This document shows, piece after piece, positions 13,443 to 49,777 of a stretch of 64,000 nt of DNA (its first letter is position 1; every line of letters begins with the position of its first letter). Origin of the DNA: Mobula birostris (lineage: Eukaryota); assembly GCF_030028105.1 (NCBI RefSeq), contig NC_092375.1, forward strand, positions 102,044,902-102,108,901. Reading direction: 5' to 3'. Below the pieces are notes generated by a model, which did no database searches, was not told where the DNA came from, and worked only from the letters and a program-made list of their open reading frames with translations. A program made the position numbers and the translations under genes.

Positions 13443-13935
13443 CGAGGGGTGATTGATAAGTTCGTGGCCTAAGGTAGACGCAGTCAATTTTAGAAAACCT
13501 AGCACATTTATTTTTCCAACATAGTCCCCTCCTACATTTGCACACTTAGTCCAGCGGTCCTGGAGCATACGGATCCCTTCTTTGTAGAAGTTGGCGTCGT
13601 GGACCTCCAGAAAGTGGTCCACAGTAGCGGTGATTGATAAGTTTGTAGCCTAAGGTAGAAGGAGATGAGTTATACAGTCTCGGTACATGCACTTGCAGTT
13701 CAACTCCTTGAGTGATTATGCAGAAAGTTTGAAGTTAAAAACTCACCTCCTTGGTCCACAGACTTACCAATCACCCCTGCTGCGGACACTTTTGGAGGTC
13801 CAAGATCTGAATGCTCCACGACTGCTGGATTAAGTGCGTAAATGTAGGAGGGAACTATGTTGAAAAATAAATGTGCTAGGTTTTCTAAAATTGACTCCTT
13901 CTACCTTAGGCCACAAACTTATCAATCACCCCTCA
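13443..13935. mobile_element. palindromic non-autonomous mariner element (MITE)
   Basis: TA TSD at 13441-13442 and 13936-13937. Inverted repeat of >130 bp starting CGAGGGGTGATTGATAAG. The minus frame FYKEGIRMLQDRWTKCANVGGDYVGK is a mariner transposase C-terminus. Confidence 0.85.
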
Positions 13936-14174
13936 TACATTCAGCAGCCACTTTACTAGGTACAGGAGTGGAACCTGATGTGGTCTTCAGCTGTTGTAGT
14001 CCAACCATTTTATGTCACAAGGGCGGCTGGAAACAGACCCAAATGCAAGACACAGACACTGAAGTACAAGGAACAGGACTTGAACAGAGTAAGGACGTGT
14101 CAGGATTCAGGCAAGGAGCAGAGACAAGAGCGCAGACTAGAGCGAGGAAAAGCGGGACCAGGACTAGGAACCAT

Positions 14175-17100
14175 GGGCTTGGGGATCGGCCGGAGGCTGG
14201 GGGCTCGGGGATCGGCCGGAGGCTGGGGGCTCGGGGACTTGAGGTTCAGCCGGAAGCTGGGTGCTTGGGGCTCGGCCGGAGGCTGGGGTCTTGGGGCATG
14301 GCTGGAGGCCAACCGCTTGGGGCTTGGGGCTCGGCCGGAGGCTTGGCGCTTGGGGCTCGGCCTGAGGCTGGGGGCTTTGGTTTTGGGCTTGGCTGGAGAA
14401 TGGGCGCTTGGGGCTCAGCCGGGGGCTGGGCGCTTGGGGCTCGGCTGGAAGCTGCGGTCTTGGGGCTTGGGGCTCATCTGGGTGCTTGGGACTCGTCGAT
14501 CGGCCGGAGGCTGGGCGCTTGGGGCTTGGTGTTCGGCCCGAGGCTGGAGGCTGGGAGTTGAGGGCTCGGCCGGAGGCCGGGCGCTTGGGGCTTGGGGGTC
14601 AGCCGGAGGCCGGGTGCGTGGGACTTGGGGCTCGGCCGTAGTCTGCGGTCTTGGGGCTCGGCCGGAGGCTGGGAGCTTCGTGCTCGGCCGGAGGCTGGGA
14701 GCTTGGGGCATGGGGCTCGGCTGGGGACTTGAGGTTCAGCCGGAAGCCGGGTGCTTGGGGCTTTGGGCTCGGCTGGAGGCCGGGGTCTTGGGGCTTGGGG
14801 CTCGGCCGGGGGCCGGAGGCTGGGTGCTTGTCGCTCGCCCGGAGGCTCGGGTCTTGGGGCTCGGCCGGAGGCTGGGCGCTCGGGGCTTGGGGCTCGCCCG
14901 GGGGCTGGGCGCTCGGGGCTTGGGGCTTGGCCGGGGGCTGGCGTCTTAGGCCTTGGGGCTCGGCGGAGGCTGGGGGCTTGGGGCTTTACCGGAGGCTGGG
15001 CGCTTGGGCTTTGGGGCTCGGCGCTTGGGGCTTTGGGCTCAGCCAGAGGCTGGGCACTCGGGGCTTGGGGTTCGGCCGGAGGCTGGGCGCTCGGGGCTTG
15101 AGGCTCGGCCGGAGGCTGGGCGTTTGGGGTTCGGCTGGAGGCTGCGGTCTTGGGGCTTGGGGCTCGTCGATTGGCAGAAGGCTGGGTCTTGGGGCTCTGC
15201 CAGAGGCTGGGCGCTTGGGGCTTGGCCCGAGGCTGGGGGCTTGGGGATCGGCCGGAGGCTGGGGGCTCGGGGATCGGGGCTCGGCCGGAGGCTGGGGTCT
15301 TGTGGCTCGGCTGGAGGCTGGGCGCTTAGGGCTTGGGGCTTGGTCCGAGTCTGGGGACTGAGGGCTCGGCCGGAGGCCGGGCGCGTGTGGCTTGGGGCTC
15401 GGCTGGAGGTGGGCGCGTGGGGCTTGGGGCTCGGCCGGAGGCTGGGCGCTCAGGGCCTGGGGCTCGGCCAGAGGCTGGGGTCTTGGGGCCTGGGGCTTGG
15501 CTGGGGACTTGAGGTTCAGCCGGAAACTGGGTGCTTGGGGCTCGGCCGGAGGCTGGGGTCTTGGGGCTTGGGGCTTGGCCGGAGGCCGGGCACTTGAGGC
15601 TTGGGGCTCGGCTGGAGGCTGGGCGCTTGGCGCTCGGCCTGAGGCTGGGGGCTTTGGTTTTGGGCTCGGCTGGAGAATGGGCGCTTGGGGCTTGGGGCTC
15701 AGCCGGGGTCTGGGCGCTTGGGGCTCGGCTGGAGGCTGCGGTCTTGGGGCTTGGGGCTCATCTGGGTGCTTGGGGCTCGTCGATCGGCCAGAGGCTGGGC
15801 GCTTGGGGCTTGGTGTTCAGCCAGAGGCTGGAGGCTGGGGGCTGAGGGCTCGGCCGGAGGCCGGGCGCTTGGGGCTTGGGGCTCAGCCGGAGGCAGGGTG
15901 CGTGGGGCTTGAGGCTCGGCCGGAGTCTGCGGTCTTGGGGCTTGGCCGGAGGCTGGGAGCATGGTGCTTGGGGCTCGGCCGGGGGCTGGCGTCTTAGGCC
16001 TTGGGGCTCGGCGGAGGCTGGGGGCTTGGGGCTTTACCGGAGGCTGGGCGCTTGGGGCTTGAGGCTTTGGGCTCCCCAGAGGCTGGGCACTCGGGGCTTT
16101 GGGTTCGGCTGGAGGCTGGGCGCTCGGGGCTTGAGGCTCGGCCGGGGGCTGGGCGTTTGGGGTTCGGCTGGAGGCTGCGGTCTTGGGGCTTGGGGCTCGG
16201 CTGGGGGCCGGAGGCTGGGTGCTTGGCGCTCGGCCGGAGGCTGGGGTCTTGGGGCTCGGCCGGAGGCTGGGCGCTCGGGGCCTGGGGCTCGGCCGGTGGC
16301 CGGGCGCTCGGGGCTCGGCCGGAGGCCGGGTGCTCGGGGCTTGGGGCTCGGCCGGAGTCTGCGGTCTTGGGGCTCGGCCGAAGGCTGGGAGCTTGGGGCT
16401 CGGCCGGAGGCCGGGTGCGTGGGGCTTGGGGCTTGGCTGGAGGCTGGGCGCGTGGGGCTTGGGGCTCGGCCGGAGGCTGGGGTCTTAGGCCTTGGGGCTC
16501 GGTGGAGGATGGGGGCTTGGGGCTTTACTGGAGGCTGGGCGCTTGGGGCTTGGGGCTTTGGGCTCAGCCGGAAGCTGGGCGCTCGGGGCTTGGGGTTCGG
16601 CCGGAGGCTGGGCGCTCGGCCGGAGGCCGGGCTCTTGGGGCTTGGGGCTCGGCCGGGTGCTGGGCGTTTGGGGTTCGACTGGAGGCTGCGGTCTTGGGGC
16701 TTGGGGCTAGTCGATCGGCCGGAGGCTGGGTCTTGGGGCTCTGCCGGAGGCTGGGGGCTTGGGGCTCGGCCTGAGGCTGGGGGCTGAGGGCTCGGCCGGA
16801 GGCTGGGTCTTGGGGCTCTGCCGGAGGCTGGGGGCTTGGGGCTCGGCCTGAGGCTGGGGGCTTGGGGCTTTACCGGAGGCTGGGTGCTTGGGGCTTGGGG
16901 CTTGGGTCTCGGCCCGAGTCTCGGGGCTGAGGGCTCGGCCGGAGGCCGGGCGCGTGTGGCTTGGGGCTCGGCTGGAGGTGGGCGCGTGGGGCTTGGGGCT
17001 CGGCCGGAGGCTGGGCGCTCAGGGCCTGGGGCTCGGCCAGAGGCTGGGGTCTTGGGGCCTGGGGCTCGGCCGGAAGCTGGGTGCTTGGGGCTCGGCCGGA

Positions 17101-20100
17101 CGCTGGAGTCTTGGGGCTTGGCTGGAGGCCAACCGCTTGGGGCTTGGCCTGAGGCTGGGGGCTTTGGTTTTGGGCTCGGCTGGAGAATGGGCGCTTGGGG
17201 CTTGGGGCTCGGCTGGAGGCTGCGGTCTTGGGGCTTGGGGCTCATCTGGGTGCTTGGGGCTCGTCGATCGGCCGGAGGCTGGGCGCTTGGGGCTTGGTGT
17301 TCGGCCCGAGGCTGGAGGCTGGGGGCTGAGGGTTCGGCCGGAGGCCGGGGTCTTGGGGCTCGGCCGGGGGCCGGAGGCTGGGTGCTTGGCGCTCGGCCGG
17401 AGGGTCGGGGCCTGGGGCTCGGCCGGAGGCTGGGCACTCGGGGCCTGGGGCTCGGCCGGAGGCCGGGCGCTTTGGGCTTGGGGCTTGGGGCTCAGCCGGA
17501 GGCCGGGTGCGTGGGGCTTGAGGCTCGGCCGGAGTCTGCGGTCTTGGGGCTCGGCCGGAGGCTGGGAGCTTGGTGCTCGGCCGGAGGCTGGGAGCTTGGG
17601 GCATGGGGCTCGGCTGGGGACTTGAGGTTCGGCCGGAAGCTGGGCGCTTGGGGCTCGGCCGGAGGCTGGGGTCTTGGGGCTCGTCCGGAGGCCGGGGGCT
17701 TGGGGCTTGGGGCTCGGCCGGGGCCGGAGGCTGGGTGCTTGGCGCTCGGCCGGAGGCTCGGATCTTGGGGCTCGGCCGGAGGCTGGGCGCTCGGGGCCTG
17801 GGGCTCGGCCGGGGGCTGGGCGCTCGGGGCCTGGGGCTCGGCCGGGGGCTGGGCGCTCGGGGCCTGGGGCTCGGCCGGGGGCTGGGCGCTCGGGGCCTGG
17901 GGCTCGGCCGGGGGCTGGGCGCTCGGGGCCTGGGGCTCGGCCGGGGGCTGGGCGCTCGGGGCCTGGGGCTCGGCCGGGGTCTGGCGTCTTAGGCCTTCGG
18001 GCTCGGCGGAGGCTGGGGGCTTGGGGCTTTACCGGAGGCTGGGCGCTTGGGGCTCGGCGCTTGGGGCTCGGGGCTTTGGGCTCAGCCAGAGGCTGGGCAC
18101 TCGGGGCTTGGGGTTCGGCCGGAGGCTGGGCGCTCGGGGCTTGAGCCTCGGCCGGGGGCTGGGCGTTTGGGGTTCGGCTGGAGGCTGCGGTCTTGGGGCT
18201 CGTCGATCGGCAGAAGGCTGGGTCTTGGAGCTCTGCCGGAGGCTGGGCGCTCGGGGATCGGCCGGAGGCTGGGCGCTCGGGGATCGGCCGGAGGCTGGGC
18301 GCTCGGGGATCGGCCGGAGGCTGGGCGCTCGGGGATCGGCCGGAGGCTGGGCGCTCGGGGATCCGCCCGAGTCTGGGGGCTGAGGGCTCGGACGGAGGCC
18401 GGGCGCATGTGACTTGGGGCTCGGCTCGAGGCGGGCGCGTGGGGCTTGTGGCTCGGCCGGAGGCTGGGCGCTTGGGGCTTGGGGCTCGACTGGAGTTGGG
18501 CGCGTGGGGCTTGGGGCTCGGCCGGAGGCTGGGCGCTCAGGGCCTGGGGCTCGGCCAGAGGCTGGGGTCTTGGGGCCTGGGGCTCGGCTGGGGACTTGAG
18601 GTTCAGCCGGAAGCTGGGTGCTTGGGGTTCGGCCGGAGGCTGGGCGCTCGGGGCTTGAGCCTCGGCCGGGGGCTGGGCTTTTGGGGTTCGGCTGGAGGCT
18701 GCGGTCTTGGGGCTTGGGGCTCGGCTGGGTGCTTGGGGCTCGTCGATCGGCAGAAGGCTGGGTCTTGGAGCTCTGCCGGAGGCTGGGCGCTTGGGGATCG
18801 GCCGGAGGCTGGGGGCTCAGGGATCGGCCGGAGGCTGGGCGCTCGGGGATCGGCCGGAGGCTGGGCGCTCGGGGATCGGCCGGAGGCTGGGCGCTCGGGG
18901 ATCGGCCGGAGGCTGGGCGCTCGGGGATCGGCCGGAGGCTGGGCGCTCGGGGATCGGCCGGAGGCTGGGCGCTCGGGGATCGGCCGGAGGCTGGGCGCTC
19001 GGGGATCCGCCCGAGTCTGGGGGCTGAGGGCTCGGACGGAGGCCGGGCGCGTGTGACTTGGGGCTCGGCTCGAGGCGGGCGCGTGGGGCTTGTGGCTCGG
19101 CCGGAGGCTGGGCGCTTGGGGCTTGGGGCTCGACTGGAGTTGGGCGCGTGGGGCTTGGGGCTCGGCCGGAGGCTGGGCGCTCAGGGCCTGGGGCTCGGCC
19201 AGAGGCTGGGGTCTTGGGGCCTGGGGCTCGGCTGGGGACTTGAGGTTCAGCCGGAAGCTGGGTGCTTGGGGCTCGGCCGGAGGCTGGGGTCTTGGGGCTT
19301 GGCTGGAAGCCAACCGCTTGGGGCTTGGGGCTTGGCCGGAGGCCAACCGCTTGGGGCTTGGGGCTTGGCCGGAGGCCGGGCACTTGGGGCTTGGGGCTCG
19401 GCCTGAGGCTGGGGGCTTTGGTTTTGGGCTCGGCTGGAGAATGGGCGCTTGGGGCTTGGGGCTCTGCCGGGGGCTGGGCGCTTGGGGCTCGGCTGGAGGC
19501 TGCGGTCTTGGGGCTTGGGGCTCATCTGGGTGCTTGGGGCTCGTCGATCGGTCGGAGGCTGGGCGCTTGGGACTTGGTGTTCGGCCCGAGGCTGGGGGCT
19601 GAGGGCTCGGCCGGAGGCCGGGCGCTTGGGGCTTGGGGCTTGGGGCTCAGCCGGAGGCCGGGTGCGTGGGGCTTGGGGCTCGGCCGGAGTCTGCGGTCTT
19701 GGGGCTCGGCCGGAGGCTGGGCGCTTGGGGCTCGTCCGGAGGCTGGGGTCTTGGGGCTCGTCTGGAGGCCGGGCGCTTGGGGCTTTGGTCTCGGCTGGAG
19801 GCCGGGGTCTTGGGGCTTGGGGCTCGTCTGGAGGCCGGGCGCTTGGGGCTTTGGTCTCGGCTGGAGGCCGGGGTCTTGGGGCTTGGGGCTCGGCGGAGGC
19901 TGGGCGCTTGGGGCTTGGGGCTCGGCCGGCGGCTGGGCGCTTGGGGCTTGGGGCTCGGCCAGGGGCCCGAGGCTGGGGTCTTAGGGCTCGGCCGGTGGCT
20001 GGGCGCTCGGGGCTTGGGGCTCGGCCGGAGGCCGGGGTCTTAGGGCTTGGTGCTTGGGGCTCGGCGGAGGCCGGGGGCCGGAGGCTGGGTGCTTGGTGCT

Positions 20101-23100
20101 CGACCGGAGGCTGCGGTCTTGGGGCTTGGGGCTCAGCCGGAGGCTGGGCGCTTGGGGCTCGGCCGGAGGCCGGGGTCTTGGGTCTTGGGGCTCGGCGGAG
20201 GCTGGGGGCTTGGGGCTTTACCGGAGGCTGGGTGCTTGGGGCTTGGGGCTTAGGTCTCGGCCGGGGGCTGGTTGCATGGGGCTTGGGGCTCGCCGGAGGC
20301 CGGGCGTGTGGGGCTTGGGGCTCTGCCGGAGGCTGCGGTCTTGCGGCTCGGCCGGGTGCTTGGGGCTTGGCCCGAGGCTGGGGTCCTGGGGGCTTGAGGT
20401 TCAGCCGGAAGCTGGGCACTTGGGGCTTGGCCAGAGGCTAGGGTCTTGGGGCTTGGGGCTCGGCGGAGGCCGGGGGCCGGAGGCTGGGTGCTTGGTGCTC
20501 GGCCGGAGGCTGCGGTCTTGGTGCTTGGGGCTCGGCTGAGGGCTTGAGGTTCAGCCGGAAGCTGGGCGCTTTGGGCTCGGCCGGAGGCTGGGGTCTTGGG
20601 GCTCGTCCGGAGTCCGGGCGCTTGGGGCTTTGGGCTCGGCTGGAGGCCGGGGTCTTGGGGCTTGGGGCTCGGCGCTCGGCTGGGTGTTTGGGGCTCGTCT
20701 CTTGGCCGGAAGCCGGGCGTGTGGGGCTTGGCAGGAGGCCAGGCGCTTGGGGCGTGGGGCTCGGGGCTCGGCCGGAGGCTGGGGGCTTTGGGTTTGGGGC
20801 TGGGCTGGAGAATGGGCGCTTGGGGCTTGGGCCTCGGCCGGGGGCTGGGCGCTTGGGGCTCGGCTGGAGGCTGCGGTCTTGGGGCTTGGGGCTCGGCTGG
20901 GTGCTTGGGGCTCATCAATCAGCTGGAGGCTGGGTCTTGGGGCTCTGCCGGAGGCTGGTCGCTTGGGGCTTGGGGCTCGGCCAGAGGCCGGGCACGTGTG
21001 GCTTGGGGCTCGGCTGGAGGCGGGCGCGTGGGGCTTGTGGCTCGGCCGGAGGCTGGGCGCTTGGGGCTTGGGGCTCGACTGGAGTTGGGCGCGTGGGGCT
21101 TGGGGCTCGGCCGGAGGCTGGGCGCTCAGGGCCTGGGGCTCGGCCAGAGGCTGGGGTCTTGGGGCCTGGGGCTCGGCTGGGGACTTGAGGTTCAGCCGGA
21201 AGCTGGGTGCTTGGGGCTCGGCCGGAGGCTGGGGTCTTGGGGCTTGGCTGGAAGCCAACCGCTTGGGGCTTGGGGCTTGGCCGGAGGCCAACCGCTTGGG
21301 GCTTGGGGCTTGGCCGGAGGCCGGGCACTTGGGGCTTGGGGCTCGGCCTGAGGCTGGGGGCTTTGGTTTTGGGCTCGGCTGGAGAATGGGCGCTTGGGGC
21401 TTGGGGCTCAGCCGGGGGCTGGGCGCTTGGGGCTCGGCTGGCGGCTGCAGTCTTGGGGCTTGGGGCTCATCTGGGTGCTTGGGGCTCGTCGATCGGCCGG
21501 AGGCTGGGCGCTTGGGGCTTGGTGTTCGGCCCGAGGCTGGAGGCTGGGGGCTGAGGGCTCGGCCGGAGGCCGGGCGCTTGGGGCTTGGGGCTTGGGGCTC
21601 AGCCGGAGGCCGGGTGCGTGGGGCTTGGGGCTCGGCCGGAGTCTGCGGTCTTGGGGCTCGGCCGGAGGCTGGGAGCTTGGTGCTCGGCCGGAGGCTGGGA
21701 GCTTGGGGCATGGGGCTCGGCTGGGGACTTGAGGTTCAGCCGGAAGCTGGGCGCTTGGGGCTCGGCCGGAGGCTGGGGTCTTGGGGCTCGTCCGGAGTCC
21801 GGGCGCTTGGGGCTTTGGGCTCGGCTGGAGGCCGGGGTCTTGGGGCTTGGGGGTCGGCCGGCGGCTGGGCGCTTGGGGCTTGGGGCTCAGCCGGGGGCTG
21901 GGCGCTCGGCCGGAGGCTGGGAGCTTTGGGTTTGGGGCTGGGCTGGAGAATGGGCGCTTGGGGCTTGGGGCTCGGCCGGGGGCTGGGCACTTGGGGCTCG
22001 GCTGGAGGCTGCGATCTTGGGTCTTGGGGCTCGTCGCTCGGCCGGAGGCTGGGCCTTGGGGCTCGGCCAGAGGCTGGGCGCTCGGGGCCTGGGACTCAGC
22101 CGGAGGCTGGGGTCTTGGGGCTTGGGGCTCGGCTGAGGGCTTGAGGTTCAGCCGGAAGCTGGGCGCTTTGGGCTCAGCCGGAGGCTGGGGTCTTGGGGCT
22201 TGGGGCTCGGCGGAGGCCGGGGGCCGGAGGCTGGGTGCTTGGGGCTCGGCCGGAGGCTGGGAGCTTGGGGCATGGGGTTCGGTTGGGGGCTTGAGGTTCA
22301 GCCAGAAGCTGGGCGCTTGGGGCTCGGCCGGAGGCTGGGGTTTTGGGGCTTGGGGCTCGGCGGAGGCCGGGAGCTGGAGGCTCGGTGCTTGGTGCTCGGC
22401 CGGAGGCTGGGAGGTCGTGGCTTGGGGCTCGGCCGGAGGCTGGGCGCTCGGGGCTTGGGGCTCGGCTGGAGGCCGGGGTCTTGGGTCTTGGGGCTCGGCG
22501 GAGGCTGGGGGCTTGGGGCTTGGGTCTCGGCCGGGGGCTGGTTGCGTGGGGCTTGGGGCTCGCCGGAGGCCGGGCGTGTGGGGATTGAGGCTCGGCCGGA
22601 GGCTGCGGTCTTGGGGCTCGGCCGGGTGCTTGGGGCTTGGCCGGAGGCTGGGGTCCTGGGGGCTTGAGGTTCAGCCGGAAGCTGGGCACTTGGGGCTTGG
22701 CCAGAGGCTAGGGTCTTGGGGCTTGGGGCTCGGCGGAGGCCGGGGGCCGGAGGCTGGGTGCTTGGTGCTCGGCCGGAGGCTGCGGTCTTGGTGCTTGGGG
22801 CTCGGCTGAGGGCTTGAGGTTCAGCCGGAAGCTGGGCGCTTTGGGCTCGGCCGGAGGCTGGGGTCTTGGGGCTCGTCCGGAGGCCGGGGGCCGGAGGCTG
22901 GGTGCTTGGTGCTCGGCCGGAGGCTGCGGTCTTGGTGCTTGGGGCTCGGCTGAGGGCTTGAGGTTCAGCCGGAAGCTGGGCGCTTGGGGCTCGGCCGGAG
23001 GCTGGGAGCTTGGGGCATGGGGTTCGGCTGGGGGCTTGAGGTTCAGCCAGAAGCTGGGCACTTGGGGCTCGGCCGGAGGCTGGGCGCGTGGGGCTTGGGG

Positions 23101-26100
23101 CTCGGCCGGAGGCTGGGCGCGTGGGGCCTGGGGCTCAGCTGGAGTCTGCCGTCTTGGGGCTTGGCCGGAGGCTGGGAGCTTGGGGCTCGGCCAGAGGCTG
23201 GGGTCTTGGGGCTTGGCTGGAGGCCAACCGCTTGGGGCTTGGGGCGTGGGGCTCGGGGCTCGGCCGGAGGCTGGGGGCTTTGGGTTTGGGGCTGGGCTGG
23301 AGAATGGGCACTTGGGGCTTGGGCCTCGGCCAGGGGCTGGGCGCTTGGGGCTCGGCTGGAGGCTGCGGTCTTGTGGCTTGGGGCTCGGCTAGGTGCTTGG
23401 GCTCGGCTGGGTGCTTGGGGCTCGTCAATCGGCTGGAGGCTGGGTCTTGGGGCTCCGCTGGTCGCTTGGGGCTTGGGGCTCGACCGGAGGCCGGGCGCGT
23501 GTGGCTTGGGGTTCGGCTGGAGGCGGGCGCGTGGGGCTTGGAGCTCGGCCGGAGGCTGGGGTCTTGGGGCCTGGGGCTCGGCTGGGGACTTGAGGTTCAG
23601 CCGGAAGCTGGGTGCGTGGGGCTCGGCCGGAGGCTGGGGTCTTGGGGCTTGGCTGGAGGCCAACCGCTTGGGGCTTGGGGCTCGGCCTGAGGCTGGGGGC
23701 TTTGGTTTTGGGCTCGGCTGGAGAATGGGCGCTCGGGGCTTGGGGCTCAGCCGGGGGCTGGGCGCTTGGGGCTCGGCTGGAGGCTGCGGTCTTGGGGCTT
23801 GGGGCTCATCTGGGTGCTTGGGGCTCGTCGATCGGCCGGAGGCTGGGCGCTTGGGACTTGGTGTTCGGCCCGAGGCTGGAGGCTGGGGGCTGAGGGCTCG
23901 GCCGGAGGCCGGGCGCTTGGGGCTTGGGGCTCAGCCGGAGGCCGGGTGCGTGGGGCTTGGGGCTCGGCCGGAGTCTGCGGTCTTGGGGCTCGGCCGGAGG
24001 CTGGGAGCTTGGTGCTCGGCCGGAGGCTGGGAGCTTGGGGCATGGGGCTCGGCTGAGGGCTTGAGGTTCAGCCGGAAGCTGGGCGCTTTGGGCTCGGCCG
24101 GAGGCTGGGGTTTTGGGGCTCGTCCGGAGTCCGGGCGCTTGGGGCTTTGGGCTCGGCTGGAGGCCGGGGTCTTGGGGCTTGGGGGTCGGCGGAGGCTGGG
24201 CGCTTGGGGCTTGGGGGTTGGCCGGCGGCTGGGCGCTTGGGGCTTGGGGTTCAGCCGGGGGCTGGGCGCTCGGCCGGAGGCTGGGGGCTTTGGGTTTGGG
24301 GCTGGGCTGGAGAATGGGCGCTTGGGGCTTGGGGCTCGGCCGGGGGCTGGGCACTTGGGGCTCGGCTGGAGGCTGCGATCTTGGGTCTTGGGGCTCGTCG
24401 CTCGGCCGGAGGCTGGGCCTTGGGGCTCGGCCAGAGGCTGGGCGCTCGGGGCCTGGGGCTCAGCCGGAGGCTGTGGTCTTGGGGCTTGGCTGGAGGCCAA
24501 CTGCTTGGGGCTTCGCCGGAGGCCGGGTTCTTGGGGCTTGGGGCTCGGCTGAGGGCTTGAGGTTCAGCCGGAAGCTGGGCGCTTTGGGCTCGGCCGGAGG
24601 CTGGGGTCTTGGGGCTTGGGGCTCGGCGGAGGCCGGGGGCCGGAGGCTGGGTGCTTGGGGCTCGGCCGGAGTCTGGGAGCTTGGGGCATGGGGTTCGGTT
24701 GGGGGCTTGAGGTTCAGCCAGAAGCTGGGCGCTTGGGGCTCGGCCGGAGGCTGGGGTTTTGGGGCTTGGGGCTCGGCGGAGGCCGGGGGCTGGAGGCTCG
24801 GTGCTTGGTGCTCGGCCGGAGGCTGGGAGGTCGTGGCTTGGGGCTCGGCCGGAGGCTGGGCGCTCGGGGCTTGGGGCTCGGCTGGAGGCCGGGGTCTTGG
24901 GTCTTGGGGCTCGGCGGAGGCTGGGAGCTTGGTGCTCGGCCGGAGGCTGGGAGCTTGGGGCATGGGGCTCGGCTGGGGACTTGAGGTTCAGCCGGAAGCT
25001 GGGCGCTTGGGGCTCGTCTGGAGGCTGGGGTCTTGGGGCTCGTCTGGAGGCCGGGCGCTTGGGGCTTTGGTCTCCGCTGGAGGCCGGGGTCTTGGGGCTT
25101 GGGGGTCGGCGGAGGCTGGGCGCTTGGGGCTTGGGGCTCGTCCAGCGGCTGGGCGCTTGGGGCTTGGGGCTCGGGGCTCAGCCGGGGCCCGAGGCTGGGG
25201 TCTTAGGGCTCGGCCGGTGACTGGGCGCTCGGGGCTTGGGGCTCGGCCGGAGGCCGGGGTCTTGGGGCTTGGTGCTTGGGGCTCGGTGGAGGCCGGGGGC
25301 CGGAGGCTGGGTGCTTGGTGCTCGACCGGAGGCTGCGGTCTTGGGGCTTGGGGCTCAGCCGGAGGCTGGGCGCTTATGGCTTGGGGCTCGGCCGGAGGCC
25401 GGGGTCTTGGGTCTTGGGGCTCGGCGGAGGCTGGGTGTTTGGGGCTTGGGGCTTGGGGCTTGGGTCTCGGCTGGAGGCCGGGGTCTTGGGTCTTGGGGCT
25501 CGGCGGAGGCTGGGGGCTTGGGGCTTTACTGGAGGCTGGGTGCTTGGGGCTTGCGGCTCACCGGAGGCCGGGCGTGTGGGGCTTGGGGCTCTGCCGGAGG
25601 CTGCGGTCTTGCGGCTCGGCCGGGTGCTTGGGGCTCGGCCAGAGGCCAGGGGCTTGGGGCTCGGCGGAGGCCGGGGGCCGGAGGCTGGGCGCTTGGGGCT
25701 CGGCCTGAGGCTGGGGGCTTTGGTTTTGGGCTCGGCTGGAGAATGGGCGCTTGGGGCTTGGGGCTCTGCCGGGGGCTGGGCGCTTGGGGCTCGGCTGGAG
25801 GCTGCGGTCTTGGGGCTTGGGGCTCATCTGGGTGCTTGGGGCTCGTCGATCGGTCGGAGGCTGGGCGCTTGGGACTTGGTGTTCGGCCCGAGGCTGGGGG
25901 CTGAGGGCTCGGCCGGAGGCCGGGCGCTTGGGGCTTGGGGCTCAGCCGGAGGCCGGGTGCGTGGGGCTTGGGGCTCGGCCGGAGTCTGCGGTCTTGGGGC
26001 TCGGCCGGAGGCTGGGCGCTTGGGGCTCGTCCGGAGGCTGGGGTCTTGGGGCTCGTCTGGAGGCCGGGCGCTTGGGGCTTTGGTCTCGGCTGGAGGCCGG

Positions 26101-32100: not shown

Positions 32101-35100
32101 GGTTGGAGTCTGCGGTCTTGGAGCTCGGCCGGAGGCTGGGAGCTTGGGGCATGGAGCTCGGCTGGGGACTTGAGGTTCAGCCGGAAGCTGGGCGCTTGGG
32201 GCTCGTCCGGAGGCCGGGTGCTTGGGGCTTTGGGCTCAGCTGGAGGCCGGGGTCTTAGGGCTTGGGGCTCGGCCGGGGGCCGCAGGCTGGGTGCTTGGCG
32301 CTCGGCCGGAGGCTCGGGGCCTGGGGCTCGGCTGGAGGCTGGGCGCTCGGGGCCTGGGGCTCGGCCTGAGGATGGGCACTCGGGGCCTGGGGCTCGGCCG
32401 GAGGCCGGGCGCTTGGGGCTTGGGGCATGGGGCTCAGCCGGAGGCCGGGTGCGTGGGGCTTGGGGCTCTGCCGGGGGCCGGAGGCTGGGTGCTTGGCGCT
32501 CGGCCAGAGGCTCGGATCTTGGGGCTCGGCCGGAGGCCGGGCGCTCGGGGCCTGGGGCTCGGCCGGGGGCCGGGCGCTCGGGGACTGGGGCTCGGCCGGG
32601 GGCCGGGCGCTCGGGGACTGGGGCTCGGCCGGGGGCCGGGCGCTCGGGGACTGGGGCTCGGCCGGGGGCCGGGCGCTCGGGGACTGGGGCTCGGCCGGGG
32701 GCCGGGCGCTCGGGGACTGGGGCTCGGCCGGGGGCCGGGCGCTCGGGGACTGGGGCTCGGCCGGGGACCGGGCGCTTGGGGCCTGGGGCTCGGCCGGGGG
32801 CTGGCATCTTAGGCCTTCGGGCTCGGCGGAGGCTGGAGGCTTGGGGCTTTACCGGAGGCTGGGCCCTTGGGGCTTGGGGCTTTGGGCTCAGCCAGAGGCT
32901 GGGCGCTCGGGGCCTGGGGCTCGGCCAGAGGCTGGGGTCTTGGGGCCTGGGGCTCGGCTGGGGACTTGAGGTTCAGCCAGAAGCTGGGTGCTTGGGGCTC
33001 GGCCGGAGGCTGGGGTCTTGGGGCTTGGCTGGAGGCTAACCGCTTGGGGCTTGGCCTGAGGCCGGGTTCTTGGGGCTTGGGGCTCGGCGGAGGCCGGGGG
33101 CTGGAGGCTCGGTGCTTGGTGCTCGGCCGGAGGCTGGGCAGTCGTGGCTTGGGGCTCGGCCGGAGGCTGGGCGCTCGGGGCTCGGCCGGAGGCCGGGGTC
33201 TTGGGTCTTGGGGCTCGGCGGAGGCTGGGGGCTTGGGGCTTTACCGGAGGCTGGGTGCTTGGGGCTTGGGGCTTGGGTCTCGGCCGGGGGCTGGTTGCGT
33301 GGGGCTTGGGGCTCGCCGGAGGACGGGGGCCGGAGGCCGGGTGAGTGGGGCTTGGGGCTCGGCCGGAGTCTGCGGTCTTGGGGCTCGGCCGGAGGCCGGA
33401 GGCTGGGAGCTTGGTGCTCGGCCGGAGGCTGGGAGCTTGGTGCTCGGCCGGAGGCTGGGAGCTTGGGGCATGGGGCTCGGCTGGGGACTTGAGGTTCAGC
33501 CGGAAGCTGGGCGCTTGGGGCTCGGCCGGAGGCTGGGGTCTTGGGGCTCGTCCGGAGGCCGGGCGCTTGGGGCTTTGGGCTCGGCTGGAGGCCGGGGTCT
33601 TGGGGCTTGGGGGTCGGCTGGAGGCTGGGCGCTTGGGGCTTGGGGGTCGGCCGGCGGCTGGGCGCTTGGGGCTTGGGGGTCGGCCGGGGGCTGGGCGCTC
33701 GGACGGAGGCTGGGGGCTTTGGGTTTGGGGCTGGGCTGGAGAATGGGCGCTTGGGGCTTGGGGCTTGGCCGGGGGCTGGGCGCTTGGGGCTCGGCTGGAG
33801 GCTGCGATCTTGGGTCTTGGGGCTCTGCTGGGTGCTTGGGGCTCGGCTGGGTGCTTGGGGCTCGTCAATCGGCTGGACGCTGGGTCTTGGGGCTCCTTGG
33901 GGCTCGGCTGGGTGCTTGGGGCTCGTCGCTCGGCCGGAGGCTGGGTCTTGGGGCTCTGCCGGAGGCTGGTCGCTTGGGGCTTGGGGCTCAGCCGGAGGCC
34001 GGGCGCGTGTGGCTTGGGGCTCGGCCGGAGGCTGGGCGCTCGGGGACTGGGGCTCGGCCAGAGGCTGGGGTCTTGGGGCATGGGGCTCGGCTGGGGGCTT
34101 GAGGTTCAGCCAGAAGCTGGGCGCTTGGGGCTCGGCCGGAGGCTGGGGTTTTGGGGCTTGGGGCTCGGCCGGAGGCCGGGCGCTTGGGGCTTGGGGCTCG
34201 GCTGGGTGTTTGGGGTTCATCTCTCGGCCGGAGGCTGGGCGTGTGGGGCCTGGGGCTCAGCCGGAGGCCGGGCGCGTGGGGCTTGGGGCTCGGCCGGAGG
34301 CTGGACGCGTGGGGCCTGGGGCTCAGCTGGAGTCTGCCGTCTTGGGGCTCGGCCGGAAGCTGGGTGCTTGGGGCTCGGCCAGAGGCTAGGGTCTTGGGGC
34401 TTGGGGCTCGGCGGAGGCCGGGTGCTTGGTGCTCAGCCGGAGGCTGCGGTCTTGGTGCTTGGGGCTCGGCTGGGGGCTTGAGGTTCAGCTGGAAGCTGGG
34501 CGCTTTGGGCTCGGCCGGAGGCTGGGGTCTTGGGGCTTGGAGCTCGGCGGAGGCTGGGAGCTTGGGGCATGGGGCTCGGCTGGGGGCTTGAGGTTCAGCC
34601 AGAAGCTGGGCGCTTGGGGCTCGGCCGGAGGCTAGGGTTTTGGGGCTTGGGGCTCGGCCGGAGGCCGGGCGCTTGGGGCTTGGGGCTCGGCTGGGTGTTT
34701 GGGGCTCGTCTCTCGGCCAGAGGCCGGGCGTGTGGGGCCTGGGGCTCAGCCGGAGGCCGGGCGCAAGGGGCTTGGGGCTCGGCCGGAGGCTGGGCGCGTG
34801 GGGCTTGGGGCTCGGCCGGAGGCTGGGCGCGTGGGGCTTGGGGCTCGGCCGGAGTCTGCCGTCTTGGGGCTCGGCCGGAGGCTGGGAGCTTGGGGCTCGG
34901 CCAGAGGCTGGGAGCTTGGGGCATGGGGCTTGGCAGGAGGCCGGGCGCTTGGGGCTTGGGGCTGGGGGCTCGGCCGGAGGCTAGGGGCTTTGGGTTTGGG
35001 GCTGGGCTGGAGAATGGGCGCTTGGGACTCGGGGCTCGGCCGGGGGCTGGGCGCTTGGGGCTCGGCTGGAGGCTGCGGTCTTTGGGCTTGGGGCTCGGCT

Positions 35101-38100
35101 GGGTGCTTGGGGCTCGTCAATCGGCTGGAGGCTGGGTCTTGGGGCTCCTTGGGGCTCGGCCGGGTGCTTGGGGCTCGTCGCTAGGCCGGAGGCTGGGTCT
35201 TGGGGCTCTGCCGGAGGCTGGTCGCTTGGGGCTTGGGGCTCGGCCGGGGTCTGGGCTCTCGGGGTTTGGGGCTCGGCCGGAGGCTGGGGTCTTAGGCGTT
35301 GGGGCTCGGCGGAGGCTGGGGGCTTGGGGCTTTACCGGAGGCTGGGGTCTTGGGGCTTGGCTGGAGGCCAACCGCTTGGGGCTTGGCCTGAGGCCGGGTT
35401 CTTGGGGCTTGGGGCTCGGCGGAGGCCGGGGGCTGGAGGCTCGGTGCTTGGTGCTCGGCCGGAGGCTGGGCAGTCGTGGCTTGGGGCTCGGCCGGAGGCT
35501 GGGCGCTCAGGGCTCGGCCGGAGGCCGGGGTCTTGGGTCTTGGGGCTCGGTGGAGGCTGGGGGCTTGGGGCTTTACCGGAGGCTGGGTGCTTGGGGCTTG
35601 GGGCTTGGGTCTCGGCCGGAGGCCGGGCGCGTGTGGCTTGGGGCTCGGCCGGAGGCTGGGCGCTCGGGGCCTGGGGCTCGGCCAGAGGCTGGGGCCTTGG
35701 GGCCTGGGGCTCGGTTGGGGACTTGAGGTTCAGCCAGAAGCTGGGCGCTTGGGGCTCGGCTGGAGGCTGGGCGCTCGGGGACTGGGGCTCGGCCAGAGGC
35801 TGGGGTCTTGGGGCATGGGGCTCGGCTGGGGGCTTGAGGTTCAGCCAGAAGCTGGGCGCTTGGGGCTCGGCCGGAGGCTGGGGTTTTGGGGCTTGGGGCT
35901 CGGCCGGAGGCCGGGCGCTTGGGGCTCGGCTGGGTGTTTGGGGCTCGTCTCTCGGCCGGAGGCTGGGCGTGTGGGGCCTGGGGCTCAGCCGGAGGCCGGG
36001 TGCGTGGGGCTTGGGGCTCGGCCGGAGGCTGGGCGCGTGGGGCCTGGGGCTCAGCTGGAGTCTGCCGTCTTGGGGCTCGGCCGGAGGCTGGGAGCTTGGG
36101 GCTCGGCCAGAGGCTGGGAGCTTGGGGCATGGGGCTCAGCTGGGGACTTGAGGTTCAGCCGGAAGCTGGGTGCTTGGGGCTCGGCCAGAGGCTAGGGTCT
36201 TGGGGCTTGGGGCTCGGCGGAGGCCGGGGGCCAGAGGCTGGGCGCTTGGGGCTCGGCCGGAGGCTGGGGTTTTGGGGCTTGGGGCTCGGCTGGGTGTTTG
36301 GGGCTCGTCTCTCGGCCGGAGGCTGGGCGTGTGGGGCCTGGGGCTCAGCCGGAGGCCGGGTGCGTGGGGCTTGGGGCTCGGCCGGAGGCTGGGCGCGTGG
36401 GGCCTGGGGCTCAGCTGGAGTCTGCCGTCTTGGGGCTCGGCCGGAGGCTGGGAGCTTGGGGCTCGGCCAGAGGCTGGGAGCTTGGGGCATGGGGCTCAGC
36501 TGGGGACTTGAGGTTCAGCCGGAAGCTGGGTGCTTGGGGCTCGGCCAGAGGCTAGGGTCTTGGGGCTTGGGGCTCGGCGGAGGCCGGGGGCCAGAGGCTG
36601 GGTGCTTGGTGCTCGGCCGGAGGCTGCGGTCTTGGTGCTTGGGGCTCGGCTGGGGGCTTGAGGTTCAGCTGGAAGCTGGGCGCTTTGGGCTCGGCCGGAG
36701 GCTGGGGTCTTGGGGCTTGGAGCTCGGCGGAGGCTGGGAGCTTGGGGCATGGGGCTCGGCTGGGGGCTTGAGGTTCAGCCAGAAGCTGGGCGCTTGGGGC
36801 TCGGCTGGAGGCTAGGGTTTTGGGGCTTGGGGCTCGGCTGGGTGTTTGGGGCTCATCTCTCGGCCGGAGGCCGGGCGTGTGGGGCCTGGGGCTCGGCTGG
36901 AGGCCGGGCGCGTGGGGCTTGGGGCTCGGCCGGAGGCTGGGCGCGTGGGGCTTGGGGCTCGGCCGGAGGCTGGGCGCGTGGGGCCTGGGGCTCAGCTGGA
37001 GTCTGCTGTCTTGGGGCTCGGCCGGAGGCTGGGAGCTTGGGGCTCAGCCAGAGGCTGGGAGCTTGGGGCATGGGGCTTGGCAGGAGGCCGGGCGCTTGGG
37101 GCTTGGGGCTTGGGGCTGGGGGCTTTGGGTTTGGGGCTGGGCTGGAGAATGGGCGCTTGGGACTCGGGGCTCGGCCGGGGGCTGGGCGCTTGGGGCTCGG
37201 CTGGAGGCTGCGGTCTTTGGGCTTGGGGCTCGGCTGGGTGCTTGGGGCTCGTCAATCGGCTGGAGGCTGGGTCTTGGAGCTCCTTGGGGCTCGGCCGGGT
37301 GCTTGGGGCTCGTCGCTAGGCCGGAGGCTGGGTCTTGGGGCTCTGCCGGAGGCTGGGCGCTTAGGGCTTGGGGCTTGGCCCAAGGCTGGGGGCTTGGGGT
37401 TCGGCCAGAGGCTGGGCGCTCGGGGCTTGGGGCTCGGCCGGAGGCTGGGGTCTTGTGGCTCGGCCGGAGGCTGGGCGTTTGGGGCTTGGGGCTCGGCCTG
37501 AGTCTGGGGGCTGAGGGCTCGGCCGGAGGCCGGGCGCGTGTGGCTTGGGGCTCAGCTGGAGGCGGGCGCGTGGGGCTTGGGGCTCGGCCGGAGGCTGGGC
37601 GCTTGGGGCTTGGGGCTCGGCCGGAGGCTGGGCGCTTTGGTTTTGGGCTCGGCTGGAGAATGGGCACTTGGGGCTTGGGGCTCGGCCGGGGGCTGGGCGC
37701 TTGGGGCTCGGCTGGAGGCTGCGGTCTTGGGACTCGTCCATCGGCCGGAGGCTGGGCGCTTGGGGCTTGGTGTTCGGCCCGAGGCTGGAGGCTGGGGGCT
37801 GAGGGCTCGGCCGGAGGCCGGGCGCTTGGGGCTTGGGGCTTGGGGCTCAGCCGGAGGACGGGCGCGTGGGGCTTGGGGCTCGGCCGGAGTCTGCGGTCTT
37901 GGGGTTCGGCCGGAGACTGGGAGCTTGGGGCATGGGGCTCGGCTGGGGACTTGAGGTTCAGCCGGTAGCTGGGCGCTTGGGGCTCGGCCGGAGGCTGGGG
38001 TCTTGGGGCTTGGGGCTCGGCCGGGGGCTGGGCGCTTGGGGCTTGGGGCTCGGCCGGGGTCCCGAGGCTGGGGTCTTAGGGCTCGGCCGGAGGCTGGTCG

Positions 38101-39885
38101 CTTGGGGCTTGGGGCTCGGCCGGAGGCTGGGCGCTTGGGGCTTGGGGCTCGGCTGGAGGCCGGGGTCTTGGGGCTTGGGGCTCGGCGGAGGCCGAGGGCT
38201 TGGTGCTCGGCCAGAGACTGCGGTCTTGGGTCTTGGGGCTCGGCCGGAGGCCGGGCGCTCGGGGGCTTGTTGCGTGGGGCTTGGGGCTCGCCGGAGGCCA
38301 GGTGTGTGGGGCTTGGGGCTCGGGGCTCGGCTGGGAGCTTGAGGCTCGGCTGGGAGCTTGAGGCTCGGCTGGGAGCTTGAGGCTCGGCCGGAAGCTGGGC
38401 GTTTGGGATTTGGGGCTCGGCCGGAGGCCGGGCGCTCGGGGCTCGGCCGGAGGCCGGGGTCTTGGGGCTTGAGGCTCGGCGGAGGCTCGGCCGGAGACTG
38501 GGGCCTTGGGGCTTGGCCAGGGGCTCGGCCAGAGGCTGGGCGCGTGGGGCTTGGGGCTCGGCGGAGGCCGGGGGCCGGAGGCTGGGTGCTTGGTGCTCGG
38601 CCGGAGGCTGTGGTCTTGGGGCTTGGGGCTCGGCTGGGGGCTTGAGGTTCAGCCGGAAGCTGGGCGCTTGGGGCTCGGCGCTCGGCTGGGTGTTTGGGGC
38701 TCGTCTCTCAGCCGGAAGCTGGGCGTGTGGGGCCTGGGGCTCAGCCGGATGCCGGGCGCGTGGGGCTTGGGGCTCGGCCGGAGGCTGGGCGCGTGGAGCC
38801 TGGGGCTCGGCTGGAGTCTGTGGTCTTGGGGCTCGGCTGGAGGCTGGGAGCTTGGGGCTCGGCCAGAGGCTGGGGTCTTGGGGCATGGGGCTCGTCTGGG
38901 GACTTGAGGTTCAGCCAGAAGCTGGGTGCTTGGGGCTTGGGGCTTGGCCGGAGGCTGGGTGCTTGGGGCTCGGCCGGAGGCTGGGGGCTTTGGTTTTGGG
39001 GCTTGGCTGGAGAATGGGCGCTTGGGGCTTGGGGCTCGGCCGGGGGCTGGGCGCTTGGGGCTCGGCTGGAGGCTGTGGTCTTGGGGATTGGGGCTCGTCT
39101 GGGTGCTTGGGGCTCGTCGATCGGCCGGAGGCTGGTCTTGGGACTCGGCTGGGTGCTTGGGGCTCGTCGCTCGGCTGGAGGCTGGGTCTTGGGGCTCTGC
39201 CGGAGGCTGGGCGCTTGGGGTTTGGGGCTCGGCCCGAGGCTGGGGGCTGAGGGCTCGGCCGGAGGCCGGGCGCGTGGGGCTTGGGGCTCAGCCGGAGGCC
39301 GGGCGCATTGGGCTTAGGGCTCGGCCGGAGTCTGCGGTCTTGGTGCTCGGCCGGAGGCTGGGAGCTTGGGGCATGGGGCTCGGCTGGGGATTTGAGGTTC
39401 AGCCGGAAGCTGGGCGCTTGGGGCTCGGCCGGAGGCCGGGGTCTTGGGGCTTGGGGCTCGGCGGAGGCTGGGCGCTTGGGGCTCAGGGATTGGGGCTTGG
39501 GGCTCGGCCGGAGGCTGGGCGCTTGGGGCTTGAGTCTCGGCCTGAGGCTGGGTGCTTGGGGCTCGGCCGGAGGCTAGGGTATTGGGGTATTGGGGTTTGG
39601 GGCTCGGCCGGAGGCTGGAGTCTTGGGACTTCAGGCTTGGCTGGAGGCTGGCGTCTTGGGACTTCAGGCTTGGCTTGAGGCTGGGGGCTTGGAACGAGTC
39701 TTGGCTTGAGGCTGGGGTCTTAGGGTTTGAGGTTGGGGCTTGGGACTTGAGGCTGGGGGCTTGGGACCCAAGGCTGGTGTCTTGAGACTTCAGGCTCGGC
39801 TTGAGGCTGGGGACTTGGGACTTGGGGCCGGGGGCTTGGGGTTGGAGCCTCGGCCGGAGGCCAGGGGCTTGGGGCTTGAGGCTTC
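14175..39885. repeat. giant G-rich/CpG-rich complex minisatellite (~25.7 kb)
   Basis: Built from CTTGGGG (7 bp), GGGGCTCGGCCGGAGGCTGGGCGCTT (26 bp) and 33-bp derivatives. Recurrent variant words include GAGGTTCAGCCGGAAGCTGGG, GGAGAATGGG, GGCCAACCGC, GGCTTTACCGG and TCGTCGATCGG. Confidence 0.98.
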
Positions 39886-39894
39886 AGGATTATC

Positions 39895-40189
39895 GAGCCT
39901 AGGGTTCTAGGAGCTTGGCTTCAGCATCCCCGAGGCTAGGGTTTTAGGTGCTTGGCTGCGGCATCCTTGAGGCTAGGGTTCTAGGAGCTTGGCTGCGGGA
40001 TCGTCAAGGCTGTGGTTCTAGGAGCTTGGCTGAGGGATCGTCGAGGCTGGGGTTCTAGAGCTTGGCTGCGGGATCGTCGAGGCTGGGGTTCTAGGAGCTT
40101 GGCTGCGGGATCGTTGAGGCTAGGGTTCTAGGAGCTTGGCTGCGGGATCGTCGAGGCTAGGGTTCTTAGAGTTTGGCTGCAGGATCTTC
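39895..40189. repeat. 37-bp minisatellite, ~8 copies
   Basis: Unit GAGGCTAGGGTTCTAGGAGCTTGGCTGCGGGATCGTC. Confidence 0.92.
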
Positions 40190-40409
40190 GTCTTGTAATG
40201 CAGAGGCTGATAACTCGGAGGCTGGAGCTGAGAGACCAACTGGGAACTGAACATTAACACAGAGCCAGGACTTGTCCTTCAAAAAGTGGGCTCATCGTTA
40301 ACACGACACTAACATGAGATAGGACAGAACATAGATATAGAGCCAGGACTTATCCTAAGACGTGCCGGGACTCATCTTCTCCACACCAAGGTGGGACAGG
40401 TCCACCTGT

Positions 40410-40580
40410 TGGGTAATGGCAGGATGGCCAGACTTACCCAACAGAGGCAAAGACATGTTCCCCCACAGGGCAACAGCAAGACAGCCTGACTTAGTCCACG
40501 GAGGTGAGGACAAGACATGACCCCCCCCCCGCGGGGCAATGGCAAGACGGCCTGACTTACCCCACGGAGGCGAGGGCAAG
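40410..40580. repeat. degenerate ~60-65-bp tandem repeat, ~3 copies, within the LTR
   Basis: Recurring GGCAATGGCAAGACGGCCTGACTTACCCCACGGAGG-like unit. Confidence 0.7.
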
Positions 40581-42264
40581 AAGAGACAAACACCAAAGAA
40601 CAACACAGTTCCATCTCTGCTCCGGGTTACCTCCAAGTCTCAGTTCAGCCAGCAACCTCAGCTGGCTACAGAAACAGCTGGATCCATACTACAAAGACTA
40701 CTCCAACAAGTGGCGACAAGGCTCCGTGAAGCAGTGGTCCTCCAACCAGGCCTAGTTTCACTAGCCTTCCAGCAGCAGGTTGCTCCATGAGGGACTGACA
40801 AGACAAACAAGCAGCCCACACGCAATCCCAAGGCTACTTATATTGTAAGGCCAAAGATGGGAATCAGGTGCCTTTGATTTAGTCAAACAAGGGACAGCTG
40901 GAAGACCCGGAGTCCTGAGTCCATGGACCAGACTGTGAACCGGAATGTGGACAAAACGGATCGGACCATGACATTTTAAGATTTGACACATACGTTCAGA
41001 GATGCTCTTCTGCATAACCACTGTTGCAGGAGAGCACCTTTGAGGTGTGAGATATCTGTATTTGAATTACTGTCACCTTCCTATCAACTTGAACCAGTCT
41101 AGCCATTCTTCTCTGACCTCTGTCATTAATGAGGGATTTTCACACATGGAACTGCTGCTCACTGGATTTTTTTTGTTTCTCGCAACATTCTCTGTAAACT
41201 CAAGAGATTGCTGTGCATGAAAATTCCAGGAGATTAACAGTTCCTGAGATATTCAAACCAGCCTGTCTGACATCAACTATCATTCCATGGTCAAATTCAC
41301 AAATTCATTTCTTCCCCATTCTGATGTTTGATCTGAACAACAACTGTATGATTTTATGCATTGAATTGCCACATGATTGACTGATTAAATATTTGCATTA
41401 ATGAGCAGGTGGACCTGTGTACCAAATCAAGTGACCACTAAATGGATTTACTGTAGATGATTTAGGAATATGTGTGTGAAGCACAAACAGCAGTATAAAT
41501 CGAACTGACTAAATGGACTTTTTTTGTTCCAAATATGTTTTGTTCTAAACAAAAATTAAGTTGAGTTTTTCTGTGAATACTGCTTATGTGATGCCATGAT
41601 GCTGCTGCACGTAAGTTTTACTTATACATATGACAATAGGCTTGAGTTTGATTAATTCAGCTGTCTGTCTATATCGTGTGTAAAGCAGAACAGCTCAGTA
41701 ATGGATTACATGGTTGAAGCTTTTTCTAATTGTAAACTGGAGGATAACTTCTGATTCTTTAACATATCTGATTTCACCTGCAAGACCCACTATTTTAAAC
41801 AAACTAAACTAAATGTACCAAAGTAAAGCATCAAATCTGGGCAATGAGAAAAACCACTGGAATATATCCATTGAAAAAAACAGTGCTACTTATGGCTCTG
41901 TTTGAAATGTATTGCAATAAATAACAATAGATTAAGGAGTTGTAGGTTAAACACAGCATTCTAAAATATTACAGTTACAAGCTGATTAAGTTGTTATTAC
42001 TTAGGTGGTGTGGTGTCAAAACATTGGGTCACATAAGTACCGGTGTGGACACAGACAAGCAGAAAATAATGTCAAGGATCACCGTTGTACATTTCCTAAC
42101 TAATAATTATAGAAAATAACATATGCAAAAGCAAGGGCATATAATAGAGCAAAAATTAGAGGGAAATTAGAGGATGGAAAGCTTTTAAAAATCAACAGAA
42201 GGCAACTGAAAAAACTGTAAGGAGGGAAAAGATGAAATATAAAGGTAAGCCAGCCAATAATATC

Positions 42265-45127: not shown

Positions 45128-45429
45128 TTCTCCTAATCTGTCCTCCTGTAGTCTCTTGGTTCCTGAGCAGTATCTGCCTCTCCACCTATCTTCATATCAT
45201 CTGCAAAATTGGCCACAAAGCCATCAATTGTCGTACTTTTGTTCCCCTGACATTGAACACCTAATGATCAAGGCTTCACAGATTAGGGCAAAAAAGGGGT
45301 GGTTATGGAAGGCAGAGGAGCAGCTTCGAGTCAGTGGACTGGGCCATGTTCAAGGACTCATCTGTGGTCTGAAAGAACACTGTGTTGTCACGGACGTTCT
45401 AAAAACAGTCGTAGAGTGTGTCCTCACAA

Positions 45430-45720
45430 ATTAGTGACTTGCTAGGCCACTTGTGAGGGCAGGTAGGGGAGTGGGTCCAGAATCACATATTGGCTACACT
45501 GAGTAATGATGGTAGCATTCCTTCCATTAGGTTGTTTGTTAGTGAATCCAATAGTTTGCTATTGTTACTTGTGGCCATTACTAGTGACGGCATTATTCAC
45601 AATTCATGTTATTCTGAATTTAAGTTCCATGGCTGCCATGATGAAATTTCAATTCAGATGTTTGGATTGTCAGTCAAAAACTCTGGATTACTAGCCAAGT
45701 ACATTAAACACTGCATTACC
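45430..45720 (-). mobile_element. old tRNA-derived SINE
   Basis: Minus head GCAGTGTTTAATGTACTTGGCTAGTAATCCAGAG and tail AAGTGGCCTAGCAAGTCACT resemble a common elasmobranch SINE. Confidence 0.5.
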
Positions 45721-48423: not shown

Positions 48424-48589
48424 TTCCAGCTTAATGGCATCATTCCTATAAAATGGTCACCAAAGGTTTAAGTGCAGCCTGACCAGTGTCTTTTACAGCT
48501 TCAGTGTAACATCCCACAAGGAGAAAATGAAGATTCCACGTTTCTAACATTGAGATTAAACTGAGATGGCTGGAGCTGTGAAGCAATTG

Positions 48590-48868: not shown

Positions 48869-48960
48869 TGTTCTACTAATTCCACCACTGTACTGCCCCT
48901 ATGTGGCTTGGCATCATTTGCTACCTTTCTCCTGAAGTATCTTGGGATATTTTATCACAT

Positions 48961-49700: not shown

Positions 49701-49771
49701 ATAGTACTGGTCATTCGTAAAAATCCCAGCAAATGATACATAAGACACATTGCAGTGAAGCAATATTTTTG

Positions 49772-49777
49772 TTTAAT
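49772..49777 (-). terminator. candidate poly(A) signal ATTAAA for the ADCY transcript
   Basis: Minus-strand ATTAAA at the end of a ~1-kb non-repetitive, UTR-like block, followed by TG-rich AATGTGTCTT. Confidence 0.3.

Follow-up and report, generated by a model that had tools for sequence, protein, structure and literature searches.

How does a single long terminal repeat (LTR) come to be 27 kb long? The question is posed by contig C7 (NC_092375.1) of the 4.0-Gb Mobula birostris assembly (NCBI RefSeq GCF_030028105.1), where positions 102,044,902 to 102,108,901, a stretch of 64,000 nucleotides without N that we refer to as the window, include a tandem array of ∼26 kb enclosed between the two ends of a retroelement LTR. 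An earlier account made from the letters alone, hereafter the sequence-only reading, took this element for a solo LTR whose minisatellite had expanded in situ to satellite scale. Our analysis points the same way: a minisatellite of a few hundred bases very probably grew in place to ∼26 kb after the element had inserted, and it is likely that at least two sister copies grew independently.

The limits of the element, which occupies C7:102,058,914–102,085,874, are sharp. Its TG...CA termini with short inverted ends (TGTCA from 14013, TGACA up to 40973) are enclosed by a perfect 5-bp target-site duplication, TTTTA, exactly as the sequence-only reading had described them, and the window contains one 5′ and one 3′ LTR end, with none in the adjoining 10 kb per side. 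The duplication is not due to chance, since most of 32 sister copies with both ends in view carry 5-bp duplications (16 perfect, 11 with one mismatch). It falls within a short host element of ∼541 bp with ∼28-bp inverted ends, bordered by TA at the left and by a one-base variant of TA at the right. Three intact copies of this host (L215, L217 and L219, from 11 non-self loci fetched) align in register over a single TTTTA, bearing out the earlier claim that a short transposon reads continuously across the insertion; the transposon-like label is predicted, and a Tc1-type identity is presumed.

Genome-wide searches with the two flanks of the array gave thousands of candidates (Table 1), and scoring the best 40 per query yielded 58 non-self loci. 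End-to-end length was obtained for 43 of these copies, 32 with both ends in view and 11 after extension, with a median of 1,355 bp; 41 measure 0.46–2.9 kb, one 4.5 kb and one 149 kb, and tens of kilobases are thus not the norm. The 15 loci left out of this count comprise two with neither a second end within 10 kb nor a long array, and 13 truncated or nested copies with the 5′ part within 1.5 kb, which were not extended. The alignments identify the flanks not as unrelated repeats but as opposite ends of a single abundant LTR family. Because this family is also present as paired LTRs round a short internal part, solo status is supported for 14013–40973, as had been proposed: the pairs were seen at L057 and L034, and among 30 loci from a junction query (602 candidates), 27 have a second LTR that follows a purine run and starts 159–189 bp beyond the first; seven of the 30 are apparent segmental duplicates, tracing to two loci. 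The internal region that would adjoin the LTR had no match within the window or the adjoining 10 kb per side.

The array itself (∼14177–40190) has a G+C content of 74% versus ∼41% outside it and, as assembled, is a head-to-tail array of satellite length, as are those of ∼67 and ∼148 kb in two sister copies described below. A 12-bp core recurs 189 times, always on the same strand, and repeat motifs are never more than 38 bp apart; the array therefore contains no inversion or foreign insert. Short family copies carry a minisatellite at one position, each with its own variant of 32–43 bp units, and the array occupies this very site and shares short modules with other copies. At its 5′ end, the 37-bp units at 39886–40190 match those of the family, and G+C climbs stepwise from 0.59 to 0.74 over ∼600 bp as these units grade into a GC-rich unit private to the locus. 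All 152 genome matches of the commonest (core) 16-mer of this unit, and all 68 of a 24-mer, lie inside the window; neither search revealed a donor array or sibling locus with the private unit in the assembly. Taken together, these observations identify the family's native minisatellite as the source from which the array would derive, in agreement with the suggestion that a satellite was born here from an LTR minisatellite.

The timing of growth can be approached from the degree of divergence. Both LTRs of one element are identical at insertion, and the paired LTRs of this family are now 81.5–95.5% identical (measurable in 16 of 30 loci), with the window LTR at most 92.6% identical to any sampled copy. 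Within the window array, by comparison, exact blocks of 1,008, 957 and 794 bp occur, one nearly in tandem at an offset of 1,228, and 500-bp tiles match at 97–100% mostly at 19–29 kb, in mid-array, and at 75–91% near both edges. The paired LTRs are old, yet inner array blocks are exact over ∼1 kb, and growth therefore likely took place after insertion and lasted until recently. Post-insertion change of the minisatellite is also visible in small copies, as paired LTRs of one element differ by minisatellite runs of 270 bp in L205 and 133 bp in L180. The short family norm, the private unit and the identical inner blocks in an old LTR all favour the in situ expansion first put forward by the sequence-only reading. 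As a sequence of events, a two-LTR copy would have inserted into the short transposon, and recombination between its LTRs would have left one of them; slippage and point mutation may then have reshuffled 7-bp modules into new units, after which repeated unequal exchange or conversion would have copied blocks of 0.3–2 kb, the latest of them mid-array.

As assembled, this family contains at least three giants, the window locus included. A 68,142-bp solo LTR with TTCTC on both sides and no N was located by pattern search at C20:69,133,752–69,201,893, in flanks where what is presumably a long interspersed element (LINE) reads through; the 149,288-bp solo LTR with both ends at C18:51,834,337–51,983,624, one of the 58 flank-picked copies, is inserted in what we take to be a short interspersed element. 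Their units are 32/42 bp (C18) and a 37/42-bp mosaic (C20), near the family type at 58–60% G+C. Neither array has a single 24-mer in common with that of the window; 546 are common to the C18 and C20 arrays, which contain 28,345 and 15,297, respectively, and a 96-mer of the C18 array has all 34 of its genome matches at the C18 locus. The C18 array also contains a 2-kb inverted piece of itself near its 5′ end, block duplications at offsets of ∼8.1 and ∼29.3 kb, and exact repeats of up to 5,957 bp. A 4.5-kb copy on C11 (65.06 Mb; L104:32–4573), in which 43-bp units form a 3.3-kb array and a block is duplicated internally, is an intermediate stage.

Further giants were sought with exact patterns giving 25, 132 (first 100 listed), 78 and 66 matches, most single-match loci not being fetched. 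The 25-match pattern led to eight new loci, one of them the C20 giant; no other giant appeared among the pattern loci listed or fetched, five candidates proving to be LTRs of 1.9–3.0 kb or a 2-kb array without a 5′ end. Since these patterns also miss the window array, three giants is a lower bound. Two of the giants lie at 52% of their contigs (C7 and C18) and one at 85% (C20), three cases that say nothing firm about position. We regard as rather unlikely the broader idea that the family is a satellite nursery, in which thousands of nearly identical starting copies would have been dispersed over the genome and dozens of them would have independently reached tens to hundreds of kilobases with both LTR ends, with a preference for low-recombination or centromeric chromatin and the largest being newborn centromeric satellites.

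Growth in place must be weighed against several points. No spanning long read was seen for any of the arrays, whose lengths are assembly lengths, and no listed piece from the short-read contigs (four runs of four organisms) bridged the LTR junction. Exact repeats of at least 200 bp cover 31% of the window array and could include assembler duplication. The C18 giant is interrupted by one 13-N gap, and the match between its flanks covers 4 bp (TTCT) instead of 5. Neither a short nor an empty orthologous allele was observed, sampling took the best-scoring 40 copies per search, such that younger subfamilies could be missed, and we infer the recombination route from pattern only. The short-read contigs of organism A, possibly the source sample, are identical over 863 bp of the left flank and cover the start of the array, with a go-back joint there. 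The left flank is also present in organism B, with 12 differences over 862 bp, and in D and E, with 46–47 over ∼755 bp; in none of these three was 14224–14260 covered, which is not evidence of absence. No RNA data set was listed as containing the sequence.

The most serious rival, to which we attach a low probability, is that the array is real and its length was inflated by the assembler, through false duplication or the joining of two haplotypes. The perfect duplications of up to 1,008 bp, including the nearly tandem one, speak for it, as do the still longer exact repeats and the gap on C18, and no spanning read was seen. However, stripping later exact copies of at least 200 bp leaves 20,433 of the 25,705 bp of the window array (17,216 at a threshold of 100 bp), 38.7 kb on C20 and 70.4 of 148 kb on C18, the last being more exposed. 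With 20.4 of 25.7 kb kept, an artefact could therefore trim the length but not remove the finding. Moreover, the duplications in the window form a mosaic of many offsets rather than one doubled half, in sequence without N.

It is harder still to credit that an ordinary LTR copy received, by insertion or conversion, a satellite that had arisen at another site, an explanation already largely refuted. The main unit is indeed GC-rich at 74% versus 58–60% for family units, and the array joins the 3′ LTR part directly, without the ∼100-bp spacer that is present in L032 and on C20. Against this, the assembly holds no donor, every match of the core 16-mer falling in the window, and the array sits at the exact site of the family minisatellite, grades into it and shares modules with other copies. 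Hardly any probability remains for an element reverse-transcribed when already giant, with long LTRs as a mobile form. In its favour, the predicted transcript start is upstream of the array, which would therefore be in the RNA, so that short arrays would travel with the element; but no sibling carries the private unit, the three giants have different arrays, the LTR pairs are far older than the inner blocks, and a two-LTR parent would need a transcript of more than 50 kb. We give equally little weight to a rearrangement joining the ends of two separate insertions round the array: in a family with thousands of candidates such ends can fall close together, but the perfect duplication, the host in register and the single pair of LTR ends within the window and its adjoining sequence argue otherwise.

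Two candidate causes, one of growth and one of the GC-rich unit, were set aside. G-quadruplex motifs reach 5.17 per kb in the window array, compared with 0.01 on C18 and 0 on C20; because they are nearly absent from both larger arrays, quadruplexes are not required for giant arrays and were rejected as a general cause. GC-biased conversion as the source of the GC-rich unit is not supported, because the non-repetitive LTR parts lack such a bias, with 20 sites private to the window changed towards A/T and 10 towards G/C. The ratio of observed to expected CpG is 0.66 in 14177–39880, 0.79 in the C20 array, 0.22 in the C18 array and ∼0.3 in the flanks. Nor did we retain a coding role: dozens of long open frames run over the array in all six frames, as expected from stop-poor sequence with 26/33-bp units shifting the frame (the frames were not scanned against families), and Rfam gave no match in window positions 12000–43000. 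We accordingly predict no function for the array and interpret its open frames as a by-product of stop-poor sequence.

The class of process, in which satellites arise from tandem repeats in LTR retrotransposons, is already established in plants and mouse. Nine of eleven satellites of Lathyrus sativus are traced to arrays at the 3′ side of Ogre elements that occasionally expanded (PMC7004042). As in Mobula, these are short hypervariable arrays in a dispersed LTR family, most of them short and few of satellite length; the Ogre arrays lie in the 3′ untranslated internal region, with expanded ones mainly in primary constrictions (PMC7004042), whereas those of Mobula lie inside the LTR of an animal genome, where LTR ends and target duplication fence 27–149 kb, each with its own sequence. 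In mouse, the unstable repeats Ms6-hm and Hm-2 arose in MaLR LTRs (PMC9659126, PMC6947457), with germline mutation rates of a few percent for repeats of this type (PMC3419097). They too are single-locus repeats that have risen inside LTR copies of one vertebrate family. Their units are 4–5 bp and their arrays of kilobase length, in contrast to the 26–43 bp variant mosaics with block duplications of Mobula, which extend to 27–149 kb. What differs from the known cases is the site inside the LTR, the retention of both ends and the duplication around 27–149 kb, and the replication in paralogous copies with separate sequences. We found no description of several giant arrays fenced in this way in the literature searched, outside which most subscription papers and supplements lie.

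Growth from minisatellite to satellite is usually argued from arrays that have lost their starting point; here, starting sequence, boundaries and an approximate age are all preserved. Thousands of copies set out from the same 1.4-kb start, and at least three attain lengths of 27, 68 and 149 kb, their units differing. Consequently, the growth trigger becomes testable in terms of unit sequence, G-quadruplex potential and chromosomal setting, with the short copies as controls. On a practical level, repeat annotation with a capped LTR length would split such elements.

Table 1. Coordinates of the insertion, its host element and the parts of the LTR in the window.
Feature	Positions	Strand	Basis or remark
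Host element (short, DNA-transposon-like), left piece with inverted end after TA	13938..14012	+	Alignment to intact copies
Target-site duplication, left copy TTTTA	14008..14012	+	Window sequence
Whole element, read as a solo LTR, 26,961 bp	14013..40973	-	5′ TGTCA at 40973, 3′ TGACA at 14013
3′ non-repetitive LTR part	14013..14176	-	Other copies reach 92% at best; genome-wide, query 14013–14170 gave at least 1,865 first-look candidates
Private GC-rich array, ∼800 interleaved 26- and 33-bp variant units, 74% G+C	14177..39582	-	Youngest perfect duplications mid-array, ∼18–30 kb
Transitional zone, units of 33 bp or less made up of 7-bp family modules, ∼62% G+C	39583..39884	-	Repeat analysis
Family-type 37-bp minisatellite, 8 copies, ∼59% G+C	39886..40190	-	Repeat analysis
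5′ non-repetitive LTR part	40191..40973	-	Other copies reach 85% at best when gapped and 92.6% at most when ungapped; genome-wide, query 40190–40973 gave at least 6,180 first-look candidates
Predicted transcript start and self-primer site, 31 nt after TATA-like box	40801..40812	-	Complementary to internal-region start in sister copies
TATA-like box, LTR position 131, same place in sister copies	40834..40843	-	Promoter role predicted
Target-site duplication, right copy TTTTA	40974..40978	+	Window sequence
Host element, right piece with matching inverted end	40979..41444	+	Genome-wide, at least 5,973 first-look candidates

The family as a whole is likely a non-autonomous, non-coding and probably self-priming element that is now extinct. 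In two-LTR copies the internal part is ∼162 bp long with a polypurine tract and holds 48 codons at most, and the positions of this tract and of a primer-binding-like site assign the LTR sense to the minus strand. The internal part begins with a 12-nt site whose best LTR complement lies 31 nt past the TATA-like box in five of eight copies scored (10–11 of 12 pairs, including G-U); this complement ranks second in one copy and outside the top two in the other two, and in the window copy one base differs from the site of sister copies. A primer-binding site able to pair with the LTR of the same element just past a TATA-like box is the self-priming signature of the Tf1/sushi group of Ty3/gypsy (PMC6317226, PMC4600332), and the family resembles this group in its self-complementary site and in its 5-bp duplication, as in Tj1 (PMC6317226, PMC4600332, PMC3601003). 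The placement draws on such sequence signals, and a non-autonomous derivative of the Tf1/sushi group is accordingly a prediction. Of the terminal motifs TGTYANR...CNTNACA (PMC3601003, Table 3), the first fits the 5′ end of the window element and the second its 3′ end at six of seven positions; the rGmr1 motifs fit about equally.

The family also invites comparison with the miniature terminal-repeat retrotransposons known as TRIMs, in which the whole element is <1 kb, with terminal repeats of 100–250 bp, a tRNA primer site and common solo repeats (PMC6934838). It shares with them the two direct repeats, the primer site and polypurine tract in a short internal part that is non-coding, and the frequency of solo repeats (PMC6934838). 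In contrast, its LTRs are 0.9–1.6 kb in most two-LTR copies, outside the TRIM size definition, and its primer site matches its own LTR, whereas that of TRIMs is tRNA-complementary (PMC6934838). TRIM arrays, moreover, repeat whole elements (PMC6934838), while here a repeat within one LTR expands. One two-LTR copy (L182, C36:6.12 Mb) has both LTRs of 271 bp and is a true miniature of the family.

Some further loci deserve mention. The same nested and partly inverted cluster of LTR pieces was encountered four times (L010, L012, L013 and L028, on C4542 and at three places on C17), likely through segmental duplications; one of these cluster copies (L108) adjoins an 84-bp repeat, which we take to resemble zinc-finger coding repeats. 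At L221 (C13:37.519–37.524 Mb) two LTR starts 3.2 kb apart have the same six bases before each, likely a local tandem duplication and not a long array. A 114-kb contig holds, at a distance of 3 kb from a two-LTR copy, an unrelated array in which 42-bp units extend over at least 10 kb (L114, C302:94,001–104,075).

Elsewhere in the window, another short element with inverted ends and a very high copy number (13440–13937) abuts the host element on its left. Fourteen open frames from outside the array matched reverse transcriptase (5), GIY-YIG (1) or ALKBH8_N (1), or gave no match (7), and would all represent mobile-element debris, no host gene being seen. Reverse transcriptase fragments occur in four frames across 43543–62160, with the GIY-YIG match at 52249–52959, and this region holds LINE and possibly Penelope-like debris.

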